The notes beneath the pieces are model-generated. The model worked only from the letters and a program-made list of their open reading frames with translations, had not been told where the DNA came from and did no database searches. Positions 7,871-62,866 of a stretch of DNA of 64,000 nt are shown here, one piece after another (within the stretch, counting starts at the first letter, position 1; every line of letters begins with the position of its first letter). Origin of the DNA: Mercenaria mercenaria (Eukaryota); assembly GCF_021730395.1 (NCBI RefSeq), contig NC_069369.1:15539210-15603209 (forward strand). The letters run 5' to 3'. A program made the position numbers and the translations under genes.

Positions 7871-8770
7871 ACAAGAGGGCCATCATTGACCTATATATCG
7901 CTCATTGACCTAGAAATCATCAAGACAAACATTCTGACCAAGTTTCATACTGATTGGGTCACAAATGTGGCCTCTAGGGTGTTCACAAGCTTTTCCTTTA
8001 ATCTGACCTAGTTTTTGACCCCACGTCCCAGTTTCGAACTTGACCTAGAAATCATCAAGACAAACATTCTGACCAAATTTCATGAAGACTGAGTCGAAAC
8101 ATTGGCTTCTAGAGTGTTCACAAGCTTTTCCTTTGATCTGGCCTACTGATCTACTTTTTGACCCACATGTCCCAGTTTCAAACTTGACCTAGAAATCATC
8201 AAGACAAACATTCTGACCAAGTTTCATACAGATTGGGTCACAAATATGGCCTCCAGAGTGTTAACAAGCTTTTCCTTGGATCTGGCCTACTGACCAATTT
8301 TTGACCCCACATGACCTAGTTTCAAACTTGACCTATATATTATCAAGACAAACATTTTGACCAAGTTTCATAAAGATTGGGTCACAAATGTGGCCTCTAG
8401 TATGTTCACAAGCTTTTCCTTTGATCTGGCCTACTGACCTAGTTTTTGACCCAGTTTCGAACTTGACCTAAAGATCATCAAGACAAACATTCTAACCAAG
8501 TTTCATTGAGACTGGGTCACAAATGTGGCCTCTAGAGTGTTCACAAGCTTTTCCTTTGATCTGGCCTACTGACCTAGTTTTTGACCGAACATGACCCAGT
8601 TTCAATCTTGACCTAGAGATTATCAAGACTAACATTCTGACCAAGTTTCATAAAGATTAAGCCAAATGTGGCCTCTAGAATGTTCACAAGGCAAATGTTG
8701 ACGCAGGACGGACGACGCACGCCGAACAATGACCGGTCACAATGGCTCACTTTGAGCACTTTGAATCAAG
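7871..8770 (+). mobile_element. Helentron-like non-autonomous element (HINE-like), 3'-truncated, about 120-bp internal tandem repeats
   Basis: Starts with the shared 5' terminus ACAAGAGGGCCATCATTGACC. About seven tandem units follow (..atcatcaagacaaacattctgaccaagtttcat..ggtcacaaatgtggcctctagagtgttcacaagcttttcctttgatctg..). It ends with the GACGGACGACG tract and only the first arm of the 3' hairpin (gctcactttgagcactttga). Confidence 0.8.
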
Positions 8771-8894
8771 GTCCCAATAGCTGAAAATGTTTTATGAACT
8801 GGATAGTTTGTTTGCAAGTTATTATTTTGCATATACTTACGAGGTGCTGCATTGTGCAATTACAGTCTATGTTTCAGTATTGCTGCCTTTGTTA

Positions 8895-9140
8895 ATGTAT
8901 ATATGAGCTGTGCCATGAGAAAACCAACATAGTGGCTTTGCAACCAGCATGGATCCAGACCAGCCTGCGCATCCGCGCAGTCTGGTCAGGATCCATGCTG
9001 TTCGCTAACAGTTTCTCCAATTCCAATAGACTTTAAAAGCGAACAGCATGGAGCCTGACCAGACTGCGCAGATGCGCAGGCTGGTCTGGATCCATGCTGG
9101 TCGCATACCCACTACGTTGGTTTTCCCATGGCACGGCTCA
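8895..9140. repeat. Foldback element: two arms of about 105 bp in inverted orientation around a 30-bp spacer
   Basis: Arm 1 reads gagctgtgccatgagaaaaccaacatagtggctttgcaaccagcatggatccagaccagcctgcgcatccgcgcagtctggtcaggatccatgctgttcgct. Its near-perfect reverse complement follows after the spacer aacagtttctccaattccaatagactttaaa. Confidence 0.85.
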
Positions 9141-9650
9141 TATATCTGTTTTTTTAGATAATTGATCAGGATTTTGAGACAGGACTGTGTGTGGTGCATA
9201 GGATAAGTGTAAGTCGATAATGTGCAATCACCCTGAAAGCAAGGGATCATCTTTCAAGGGTTTGAGCCTTGAATTGGCTGCACATTATTCTAACCCAGTG
9301 ATACAAACAGCAAATTATAATATATTATAACAGCACCATAATCAGTTGTGTGAATACTCAGATTTATTCTCAATCAGTGCAACTTAAGGTGTTTTAAATA
9401 AGACAGCAGCTGTACATCTCTTAATTTAATATTATCATTTGATTTAACGGCTGGTATATCAATCGGAGTCTTTTGAAACTACCTCACTGAAGCAAAAATT
9501 GAAACTTTCAAAAAGATATAAAGTATTTTCTTACTATAAAGAATTCAGAATGTCAATAATTAAACATCTTATCAGTATCAGTACATGAAAAATATGTACT
9601 CACAAATTAGCTTATCTCTAGAATGACAGAAAATGGAAAGTACATCCAAT

Positions 9651-59752: not shown

Positions 59753-60064
59753 ACTAGAAAATTAAAATTCCATTTGCAAATACAGGTGCTAGTGTAAAGA
59801 AATTTGCTGCGAAGGGCGTATATTGTGACATTCTGGCACTCTTGTTTAAAATAAAAAAACAGTGACAGATGGGTCCAGTAAAACCTTTGAATATAAGAGG
59901 TTACCCATAGCCTTAAGCCATGTTGTTAATTCATATAATTGCCTTAATAAGCTATATATGATTGTTTCAGTTTATAGATTAACAAAAACATTTCCAAAAC
60001 TGTGCAGGTTTATACAATACAAACGCAATGAAAATGGTTTTATATAAAATATTATATGGTGACA

Positions 60065-60745
60065 TTATATAAATATTGCATTCCTGAGAGGGTGATATGA
60101 AAAATGTTCACCGCGAGATATATGAATATTGACCGAGGCGCCAGAATTAAAGAGTATTTACTTGTTTTGGCGACTTTGTTGTGTAAGACTTTTTTGATAG
60201 ATTCAGTCGGGACGTTTACATATCGCTGACCCCTACAGTATATTTTTTCTAATATTTCAACATTGCGTCAATCAGTAGGCCTAACATTCGAAAAAACGGC
60301 GATAACTTTCTTTTTTCTAAACGAAACATATAAGTGTGAGTACTCATTTTCTTAGTTAGATCATTTCCAATCTCATGGTGGTAGTTTCGATTCAATATTA
60401 GATGAAAAGTTGTTTTCGAAATATTTTGCACGTAGCATAAAAAAGAAAATTCGGCCGGATTCGCACATGCAAGAGCACCAGAAAAGGGTAATTTAATCCT
60501 AAAGTATAATTATATAAGCGCTTCGTCTTGAAATTTATCGACTCAGTATTTTAATCAATGCGTAAGTATCAATCTCTCAACGGGTGATATGAAAAAATAA
60601 TATCACCTGCGCAGAAATTGAAAATAACGGTTTTGCACATGAGTCATAAAATCATTGGGGAATATGATATAAAATTCAAGTTAAACTAATGGGAAATTTG
60701 CATTGGACATTTAGTGAGGTATAATAAAACGACATAACAGATATC
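60065..60745 (-). mobile_element. Inverted copy of the 54040-56030 unit with a single palindrome arm at 60077-60140
   Basis: 60250-60740 is the reverse complement of about 54140-54660 at high identity (ORF 60249..60431 mirrors ORF 54457..54654). This copy lacks the segment equivalent to 54790-54925. Confidence 0.8.
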
Positions 60746-61017
60746 AGAATTAGAAATCTTCGGCATGGCCCCCAAACAGGTAATATCTCTTTTTGGTACC
60801 ACTAGCTGTAACACTTTTTATAATTGATAGTGCTTTGGACATTTTATTCCTTTTAGTGACCTATATCTTTCTGTAATCGTGTTATATTTGATCTGTTTAG
60901 AGATTTTAAAATATGCATATTTATTGCAACGGAAACCAGACAGTCAAGTACACTTCCTCTTGTAAACACGCCATTTAATGAAATATATTGTCATAAGAAT
61001 TATACGTGCATCTATAT

Positions 61018-62866
61018 ACAAGAGGGCCAAGATGGCCCTAGGTCGCTCACCTAAGAAACACTCCATAACAGTGTAAAACATGTTTGACCTAGTGATTTCA
61101 TGGAAACAAATATTCTGACCAATTTTCATTAAGATTGGACCAAAAAATTGGTCTCTTGCGATAAAACAAGCATTTTCTTAGAAATGACCTAGTTTTTGAC
61201 CCTAGATGACCCATGTTCAAACTCAACCTAGATTTTATCAAGGCAATCATTCTGACCAAAATTCATGAAGATCAACTGAAAAATACAGCCTCTATCACAT
61301 ACAGAAGTTTTTTCTTTGATTTGACCAAGTGACCTAGTTTTTGACCTCAGATGACCCATATTCAAATTCGACCTAGATTTCATTAAGGCAATCAACCTGA
61401 CCAAATTTCATAAATATCAACTGAAAAAAAACAGTCTCTATCGCATACACAAGATTTTTCTTTAATTTGACCTAGTGACCTAGTTTTTGACCTCAGATAA
61501 CCCATATTCAAAACCGACCTAGTTTTCATCAAGGCAATCACTCTGACCAAATTTCATGAAGATCAATTGAAAAATACATCCTCTATTGCATACACAATGT
61601 TTTTCTTCGATTTGACCTAGTGACCTAGTTTTTGACCCCAGATGACCCATTTTCGAAATCAGCCTAGATTTTATCAAGGTTATCATTCTGGCTAAATTTC
61701 ATGAAGATCAGTTGAAAAATACAGCCTCTATTGCATACACAATGTTTTTCTTTGATTTGACCTAGTGACCTAGTTTTGACCCCAGATGACCCATTTTCGA
61801 ACTTGGTCTAAATTTCATCAAGGCAATCATTCTGACCAAAATTCATGAAGATCAATTGAAAAATACAGCCTCTATAGCATTCACAAGGTTTTTACGTGAT
61901 ATGATCTAGTGACCTAGTTTTTGACCCCAGATGACCCATTTTCGAACTCGGCCTAGATTTCATCAAGGTTATCATTCTGACCAAAATTCATGAAGATCAA
62001 TTGAAAAATACCGCCTCTATCGCATACACAAGGTTTTTCTTTGATTTGACCTAGTGACCTAGTTTTTGACCCGAGATGACCCATTTTCGAACTCGGCCTA
62101 GATTTCATCAAGGCAATCATTCTGACTAAAATTCATGAAGATCAATTAAAAAATACAGCCTCTATCGCATACACAAGGTTTTTCTTTGATTTGACCTAGT
62201 GACCTAGTTTTTGACCCCAGATGACACATTTTCGAACTCGGCCTAGATTTTATCAAGGTTATCATTCTGACCAATATTCATGAAGAAGAATTGAAAAATA
62301 CAGCCTCTATCGCATACACAAGGTTTTTCTTTGATTTGACCTAGTGACCTAGTTTTTGACCCGAGATGACCCATTTTCGAACCAGGCCTAGATTTCATCA
62401 AGGTTATCATTCTGACCAATATTCATGAAGATTAATTGAAAAATACCACTTCTATCGCATACACAAGGTTTTTCTTTGATTTGACCTAGTGACCTAGTTT
62501 TTGACCCGAGATGGCCGATTTTAGAACTCGGCCTAGATTTCATCAAAGTTATCATTCTGACCAATATTCATGAAGATTAAATGAAAAATACAGCCTCTAT
62601 CGCATACACAAGGTTTTTCTTTGATTTGACCTAGTGACCTAGTTTTTGACCCGAGATGACCCATTTTCGAACTCGGCCTACATTTCATCAAGGTTATCAT
62701 TCTGACCAATATTCATGAAGATTAATTGAAAAATACAGCCTCTATCGCATACACAAGCTAAATGTTGACGGACGACAGACGACAGACGACGGACGACGGA
62801 CGCCGGACATCGAGCGATCAGAAAAACTCACCTGAGCATTGCTCAGGTGAGCTAAAAATAATACTT
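61018..62866 (+). mobile_element. HINE-like element, near-identical paralogue of 9651-11350
   Basis: Same 5' terminus ACAAGAGGGCCAAGATGGCCCTAGGTCGCTCACCTAAG, the same tandem units and the same 3' hairpin ACTCACCTGAGCATTGCTCAGGTGAGCTAAAAATA. Both copies share the ORF MKIGQNICF.EITRSNMFY.VMECFLGERPRAILALL across the 5' junction. Confidence 0.9.

Follow-up and report, generated by a model that had tools for sequence, protein, structure and literature searches.

The window analyzed here, a stretch of 64,000 nucleotides from the clam Mercenaria mercenaria (NC_069369.1, positions 15,539,210 to 15,603,209), contains seven loci at which a tandem array is enclosed by shared terminal sequences. An earlier note on this DNA had read these loci as one family of non-autonomous Helentron elements (HINEs). 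Our analysis adds six further copies, and we conclude that all 13 are very probably HINEs of the bivalve "pearl" type, that is, non-autonomous rolling-circle transposons of the Helentron type. Together they span 21.9 kb, or 34% of the 64-kb window, including ∼4 kb of other transposons nested within them.

By definition, a HINE opens with a T run of variable length and, just within it, a 5′ subterminal inverted repeat (subTIR) that has an inverted repeat (IR) close by. A microsatellite and, optionally, central repeats precede the 3′ subTIR and the 3′ stem-loop, and insertion is at TT with no duplication of the target (Thomas et al. 2014, PMC4067079). The 5′ subTIR measures 11–15 nt and lies a few nucleotides from the 5′ end; in HINEs of the DINE-1/Cg_HINE type, the inverted repeat lies 1–22 nt from it. 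The HINE reading of the earlier note is supported because every listed hallmark is present in the right order (PMC4067079, PMC7492417). Elements are described below in the Helentron orientation, which is the reverse complement of the one used in that note.

Seven copies of one family

The seven loci, hereafter family A, had been placed correctly to within ∼20 bp. Their refined spans and parts are as follows.

7871–8787, minus strand: A1, an old copy; 5′ subTIR split by a 5-nt insertion; palindrome decayed; 144-bp array at 7905–8690.
9652–11352, minus strand: A2; T5 and 5′ subTIR at 11335–11352, IR at 11321–11331, (GTCY)n at 11253–11302; 145-bp array at 9819–11244 (9.8 units), 3′ subTIR at 9677–9688, palindrome at 9657–9673, CTCTTGT at 9652–9658.
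14962–16219, minus strand: A3, an old copy; left flank decayed and IR lost; 145-bp array at 15391–16110; insert of ∼380 bp at ∼15005–15390.
30951–32126, plus strand: A4, in an eRF1 intron; family A termini around an unrelated 167-bp array at 31163–31837, judged BIV160/Cg170-like; 5′ subTIR at 30951–30968, IR at 30974–30986, microsatellite at 31004–31028, 3′ subTIR at 32090–32101, palindrome with compensatory changes at 32105–32121.
34701–38002, plus strand: A5; two 145-bp sub-arrays at 34777–35227 and 36602–37960, with a nested 1.4-kb element bounded by terminal inverted repeats (TIRs) between them at 35222–36600.
51231–52600, minus strand: A6; T5 and 5′ subTIR at 52583–52600, IR at 52563–52575, (GTCY)n at 52516–52545; 145-bp array at 51266–52504, 3′ subTIR at 51256–51267, palindrome at 51236–51252, CTCTTGT at 51231–51237.
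61018–62858, minus strand: A7; array at 61185–62757 (10.8 units), one monomer longer than that of A2.

A family A element begins with T4–5 and the 5′ subTIR, AGCTCACCTGAGC, followed by a loop of 3–7 nt, the inverted copy GCTCAnGGTGAGC, a spacer, (GTCC/GTCT/GTC)n, and the array. To the right of the array come TCAGGTGAGCGA, a palindrome of 6–7 bp (GGGCCn5GGCCC or a variant), and CTCTTGT, after which the host sequence opens with T in six of the seven copies. The 3′ subTIR, TCAGGTGAGCG, lies 26–37 nt from the 3′ end; it pairs with the 5′ subTIR through a perfect core of 10 bp and at 12 of 14 positions overall. The GTCY-type microsatellite stands after the left flank in every intact copy, and the (GACGR)n repeat of the earlier note is indeed where that note had put it.

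That the seven loci form one family is established by their ends: the alignment holds at every base until a sharp boundary is reached, and the flanks beyond are unrelated. With at most one mismatch, ACAAGAGGGCC occurs eight times against 0.48 expected, once at each of the seven loci and once at 59835–59845, in a copy of another family. With at most two mismatches, GCTCAGGTGAGCTAAAAA occurs five times against none expected (at 11352, 30951, 34701, 52600, and 62858), which confirms the terminal structure that the earlier note, reading the other strand, had described as the shared 3′ end.

The fold at both ends is conserved across sequence-divergent copies and across families. On the left the hairpins are strong: as DNA they fold at −12.6 to −15.3 kcal/mol (z = −5.8 to −6.8), and none of 200 shuffled sequences folds as well. 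On the right, families A, B, D, and E have a stem of 6–7 bp that stops 5–6 nt short of the 3′ end. Over 19 distinct right flanks the palindrome is kept in 91.5% of cells, and two palindrome pairs carry compensatory changes, as in GGGCCA/TGGCCC versus GGGTCAT/ATGACCC.

Two exceptions that had been proposed within the family do not survive closer examination. A1 and A3 both keep hairpin ends that are decayed and still alignable to the intact copies. The locus at 7871–8770, formerly described as 3′-truncated, is therefore full-length and old, its hairpin end reaching 8787. The copy formerly called chimeric is explained by nested insertions, namely the 1.4-kb TIR element within 34701–38002 and the insert of ∼380 bp within 14962–16219.

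Satellite-like cargoes and relatives in a second host

The seven copies carry two unrelated cargo families, one of 145-bp units in several diverged variants and one of 167-bp units. Tandem Repeats Finder returned periods of 144–146 bp in six copies and of 167 bp at 31163–31837 in A4. It found no unit near 120 or 185 bp in the seven loci, so that the lengths of 120, 150, and 185 bp given earlier need correction. The 145-bp consensus units are mutually 75–98% identical, and the mean monomer identity between 145-bp arrays is 0.71–0.88; at the 70% threshold of the Cg_HINE paper, the units would therefore form a single cluster. By comparison, the 167-bp unit aligns to the 145-bp units with scores of 11–15, the level of the shuffled control. 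Thus, the "at least four different cargoes" of the earlier note reduce to two. The orientation of the units is constant relative to the flanks.

A link to the bivalve satellites BIV160 and Cg170 had also been suggested, and it holds for one cargo and fails for the other. The BIV160 primers bivF and bivR (PMC5139131) match every 167-bp monomer of A4 with two to four mismatches, while the shuffled window gives only scattered matches even at six or fewer. Judged by these primer sequences, the A4 cargo appears to be BIV160/Cg170-like. The 145-bp cargo, whose scores against the 167-bp unit stay at the shuffle level, shows no such homology. The only stretch common to 145-bp and 167-bp monomers is an 11-nt motif, TTTGACCCCAG, which is the start of bivR and has the same orientation relative to the flanks in both (occurrences at 10263–11152, 61631–62665, and 31257–31775). 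This motif may represent one of the conserved boxes described in satellites of bivalves, or be a chance match.

A2 and A7 provide evidence that arrays have moved. The two copies are 97.8% identical over 1693 columns and differ by exactly one 145-bp unit and by the length of the microsatellite. Because their flanks are unrelated, A7 is an independent insertion; because near-identical copies occupy unrelated sites, arrays of 10–11 units must have been copied whole, with array length changing by whole monomers. In both copies (9819–11244 and 61185–62757) the identity of adjacent monomers is 0.94–0.97 at the 5′ end, next to the microsatellite, and declines steadily to ∼0.75 at the 3′ end. This gradient suggests an origin of new units close to the end that bears the microsatellite. 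A5 and A6 have no such gradient.

Family A is also found outside the clam. A scan of Joint Genome Institute metagenome contigs with the left end returned at least 120 contigs among the matches listed, nearly all of them from two samples; the counts that follow refer to these listed matches. Their subTIR is identical over 13 nt and is preceded by a T run of 4–9 nt, mostly 5. At the right ends a T follows in 26 of 29 copies. Since the arrays are 67–79% identical to those of the window and no unique flank matches, the host behind metagenomes Ga0224511 and Ga0224510 is another species, presumably a bivalve. There too, the same left end precedes different cargoes: a BIV160-like array in 31 copies, which cluster with A4, and the 145-bp cargo in seven copies, which cluster with the other six window copies; four singletons complete the set. 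An identical subTIR beside arrays of only 67–79% identity in a second host may point to terminal signals that were retained for very long, with selection acting on mobility, or to horizontal passage from one bivalve to another.

Two arrangements in these contigs concern neighboring insertions. On the minus strand of contig L054 (∼1480–1660), a right end is joined directly to a left end belonging to a different subfamily, as CTCTTG|TTTTTAGCTC. We rejected a rolling-circle read-through as the source of this head-to-tail junction: the abutting elements belong to different subfamilies, and thus insertion at the T-rich end of a neighbor explains it equally well. In two contigs of the group L051, L098, and L092, a left end is inserted in a T6 run just after the microsatellite of another copy, and L092 holds the uninterrupted site.

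It is useful to consider whether segmental duplication or unequal exchange could have dispersed these loci as ordinary satellite arrays, the "termini" being no more than a piece of what was duplicated. The same monomer does recur in several arrays within 64 kb, and satellite annotations make up 10% of the M. mercenaria genome (PMC8905726). However, similarity in every copy reaches as far as the T run and CTCTTGT and stops precisely there, with unrelated flanks. Furthermore, unrelated 145-bp and 167-bp arrays lie under the same termini, and the same sharp boundaries recur in at least 120 contigs of another source among the matches listed. We therefore regard this origin as very unlikely.

Other families, target sites, and nested insertions

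Six copies in the window have the same architecture and belong to other families.

11389–12169, plus strand: family B; TTTTTAGCTCGACTTTTC to GAAAAGTCGAGCG, then palindrome GCTGTC/GACAGC, TCTTGT, and T; 170-bp array at 11652–12096; outermost ends as in family A.
12208–14529, plus strand: C1; TT and ATGTCTCCCCC, loop, GGGGGAGACAT; (GTCC)n at 12252–12306; at the 3′ end GGGGGAGACAT, palindrome, and TTCTAGTT.
26847–29411, plus strand: C2; array interrupted by a complete C3.
27437–29003, plus strand: C3, nested in the C2 array.
42438–43344, minus strand: D (family D/E); T6 and ATACGCCCG, loop, GGGACGTAT; 157-bp array at 42823–43285; at the 3′ end GGGCATATA, palindrome, CTCTTGT, and T.
56099–59845, plus strand: E (family D/E); T5 and the ATACGCCCG hairpin; 169-bp array at 56306–57043; 191-bp units at 57065–57419.

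The 3′ end of copy E, at 59813–59845, consists of GGGCGTATA, a palindrome, and CTCTTGT followed by T; it is the source of the eighth ACAAGAG match noted above. The C1 array (12315–14342) is built of 145-bp units that are unrelated to those of family A. Among families A, B, C, and D/E the subTIR sequences are unrelated, and each family has its own complementary 5′/3′ pair. The inverted repeat beside the 5′ subTIR has loops of 3–7 nt and z ∼ −6, and it is weak in family B. Array units measure 144–170 bp, in an orientation fixed relative to the flanks. Families A, B, and D/E also share their outermost ends, a T run plus A on the left and a hairpin plus CTCTTGT then T on the right, whereas the ends of family C are different (TT plus ATGTCTCCCCC and TTCTAGTT).

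One possible account of this pattern, which we offer tentatively and consider doubtful in its full form, is twofold: families A, B, and D/E would be served by one lineage of Helentron Rep that reads only the extreme ends and the geometry of the fold, and family A would have reached the second host through long retention or horizontal transfer. If such a Rep reads ends and fold only, any sequence that gained such ends could found a new family.

Several copies lie close together. At 9652–14529 three families stand end to end, A2, B, and C1, with gaps of 36 and 38 bp; this cluster suggests insertion beside the T/A-rich ends of resident copies. Next to copy D, at 43370–43700, decayed monomers of family C type accompany a remnant of AGCTCGACTT, probably the wreck of a further HINE. 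Directly upstream of copy E, at 55840–56040, lies a palindromic segment with a 54-bp direct repeat (ATATTTATATAATCTCGCGGTGAACATTTTTCATATCACCCTCTCAGGAATGCA).

The insertion sites fit the TT targets of HINEs. The words shared by flanking 20-mers are no longer than those of random pairs, and target-site duplications are thus absent. In nine of ten window copies of families A, B, and D/E, the base after the 3′ end is T (six of seven in family A, together with B, D, and E). Removal of C3 restores the C monomer sequence, ...CCCTTATT|GTCTTTGGGG, giving an internal empty site TATT^G with no duplication beyond the TT ambiguity.

These sites also bear on the class to which pearl and DTC84 elements were originally assigned. 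Under that classification, the clam copies would be derivatives of a cut-and-paste DNA transposon, similar to MITEs (miniature inverted-repeat transposable elements), with inverted repeats and duplication of a 2-bp target site, TT/AA. Inverted repeats of 10–13 bp do link both ends, and nearly every copy is flanked by T/T, or A/A in the orientation of the earlier note. A TT duplication would fit the nested C3 site, and an AA duplication was proposed in the DTC84 paper (PMC3879986). However, the two ends lack symmetry: the repeat reaches the terminus on one side and lies 26–37 nt inside it on the other, and the outermost bases, T5-A... and ...CTCTTGT, are not inverted copies. There is no duplication of more than 2 bp, and a fixed 2-bp duplication does not explain a 5′ T run that varies from 4 to 9. 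In addition, the same architecture is tied to autonomous Helentrons in mites, Culex, and Drosophila (PMC4067079). A MITE-like origin therefore seems improbable. A canonical Helitron, for which 5′ TC, 3′ CTRR, and insertion between A and T are expected, does not fit either, because the ends read T run plus A... and ...CTCTTGT then T.

Three insertions of other kinds lie within the HINEs.

15005–15390: insert in A3, ∼380 bp, tRNA-like over its first ∼70 nt, with motifs resembling box A and box B.
35222–36600: TIR element in the A5 array, 1.4 kb, non-coding, with 16-bp TIRs (ATAGAGATGGTACCTA).
57468–59748: TIR element in copy E, 2.28 kb, non-coding, with perfect 26-bp TIRs (TAGGGTAAAATGGGGTAACTGGGACA) and TA at both junctions.

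The A3 insert gave a weak match to a tRNA-like Rfam family in a permissive scan and is probably a tRNA-derived short interspersed nuclear element (SINE); a second copy of it was not found in the window. This insert and the short run of A of variable length at one end could be taken to mean that the family itself consists of SINE-like retroposons with a short A tail (the ...GAGCTAAAAA end in the orientation of the earlier note), the tandem repeats being there by happenstance. Against this, ARAGORN and Rfam at the gathering threshold found no tRNA or SINE head in the copies, nor any 5S or 7SL head. The tRNA-like piece occurs in only one of the seven copies and is thus a secondary insertion. Variable-length target-site duplications are absent, and hairpins conserved at both ends together with complementary subTIRs are not features of SINEs. 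A SINE origin is therefore extremely unlikely.

Genes and other repeats adjoin some of the copies. Domain 2 of eRF1 is encoded by two exons on the plus strand, 30152–30300 and 30733–30925 (Pfam E = 7e-37). A4 starts 27 nt past the end of the second exon, at 30925, near the splice donor. Copies C2/C3 and A5 likewise lie in or near the eRF1 gene. A FAHD1 (acylpyruvase) exon at 46482–46982 on the minus strand has 99% identity to a Mercenaria mercenaria protein. At 2449–6402 a minisatellite of ∼4 kb, unrelated to the HINEs, is made of ∼74 copies of a 45-bp unit, ACAGACAGGGTGTGATTTGTGCCACAGACAGACTGAAGAGGACAA, with ∼80% matches; it adjoins an open reading frame (ORF) at 1769–2179 on the minus strand.

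Mode of movement and known relatives

By analogy with the Helitron and Helentron literature, mobility would be supplied in trans. The Rep/helicase(-endonuclease) of an autonomous Helentron elsewhere in the genome would nick the 5′ end, and one strand would be peeled off or copied, with the 3′ hairpin and terminal motif signaling termination. The strand would then be reinserted between two Ts without target duplication. Array length could change by whole monomers before or after transposition, and unrelated arrays under the same flanks could arise by array replacement or by recombination between elements.

The copies themselves have no coding capacity: no ORF of at least 110 aa overlaps any of the 13. 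When an autonomous partner was sought in the window, no long ORF was found. A Pfam scan of seven of the longest ORFs in 409 kb of related contigs revealed neither Rep nor helicase; the matches were to a phage-integrase SAM-like domain, NHL-repeat proteins, an ISXO2-like transposase, and an endonuclease of the type found in long interspersed nuclear elements. The terminal motifs, sought as text in the literature, returned only unrelated primer matches.

Several observations weigh against the assignment to HINEs. Taken singly, the 3′ hairpins are energetically weak (z = −1.3 to −3.6). The hairpin lies 5–6 nt and the subTIR 26–37 nt from the 3′ end, whereas in mite HINEs these distances are 8–35 and 38–60 nt (PMC4067079). 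A TT site fits the absence of duplication and a 2-bp TT duplication alike, and older literature took the same ends as the AA duplication of a MITE (PMC3879986). An empty site is seen for C3 only and for no copy of family A itself. Finally, neither an autonomous Helentron that shares these termini nor an ORF for Rep/helicase was found in the window or in the 409 kb of related contigs; structure and the literature are thus the basis for placing the copies in the Helentron superfamily.

Among the known ways in which satellite-like repeats become dispersed in the euchromatin of bivalves, gene introns included, HINEs are the main one. The window is a compact venerid-clam example of this process: whole arrays of 10–11 units have been transposed, the same termini enclose unrelated arrays, one HINE is nested in another, and several subTIR families share common outermost ends. 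The M. mercenaria genome paper gives bulk figures only, 4–5% rolling-circle elements and 10% satellites, and no HINE families (PMC8905726). The present copies leave current understanding unchanged; a possible use lies in curating clam repeat libraries, where such elements might otherwise be labeled "satellite" or "unclassified".

Indeed, HINEs with satellite-like arrays are a well-described feature of bivalve genomes, and the copies reported here are ordinary members, new only in coming from a venerid clam. Complex nested HINE/satellite loci are already known from oysters (PMC12628747). Beyond the bivalves, the DINE-1/HINEs of Drosophila, Culex, and the mite Metaseiulus have the same defining anatomy, including variable terminal T runs and TT targets. 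Those of mites, Culex, and Drosophila are tied to autonomous Helentrons by termini that are >95% identical (PMC4067079), whereas no such partner was found here.

The pearl elements of Crassostrea virginica (CvA, CvE, and CvG; Gaffney et al. 2003) and the Donax trunculus element DTC84 are built of an L flank, core repeats, (ACGG/ACGA)n, and an R flank (PMC3879986). In the L flank their inverted motif has a subterminal position, in the R flank a terminal one; their ends are A-rich ("AA"), and their core repeats are related to bivalve satellites (PMC3879986). The earlier note had followed this older convention of orientation, which is the reverse complement of the Helentron one (PMC3879986). Pearl and DTC84 differ in having at most five to six core repeats and in having first been classed as MITEs, and the likeness drawn here is by description (PMC3879986). 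Within the BIV160/Cg170/HindIII satellite family, A4 represents a four-unit cargo inside a transposon, in contrast to a long heterochromatic array (PMC5139131).

The closest comparison is with the 11 Cg_HINE elements of the Pacific oyster, whose "group 2" likewise combines related flanks with unrelated arrays (Vojvoda Zeljko et al. 2020, PMC7492417). No match to subTIR or monomer strings of the clam copies was found in the part of the Cg_HINE supplementary sequences that was examined, which says little (PMC7492417). The clam copies differ from Cg_HINE in their venerid host, apparently in the sequence of their flanks, and in array length, which reaches 14 units here against an average of 3.6 there (PMC7492417). 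The order of parts is the same: 5′ subTIR, IR, and GTCY-type microsatellite, then a satellite-DNA-like array of 140–180 bp units in fixed orientation, and finally a 3′ subTIR and palindrome (PMC7492417). Like the clam copies, Cg_HINE elements occupy T-rich or TT sites without target-site duplication, and some carry Cg170/BIV160-like cargoes (PMC7492417). They, too, insert into other repeats and into gene introns (PMC7492417).

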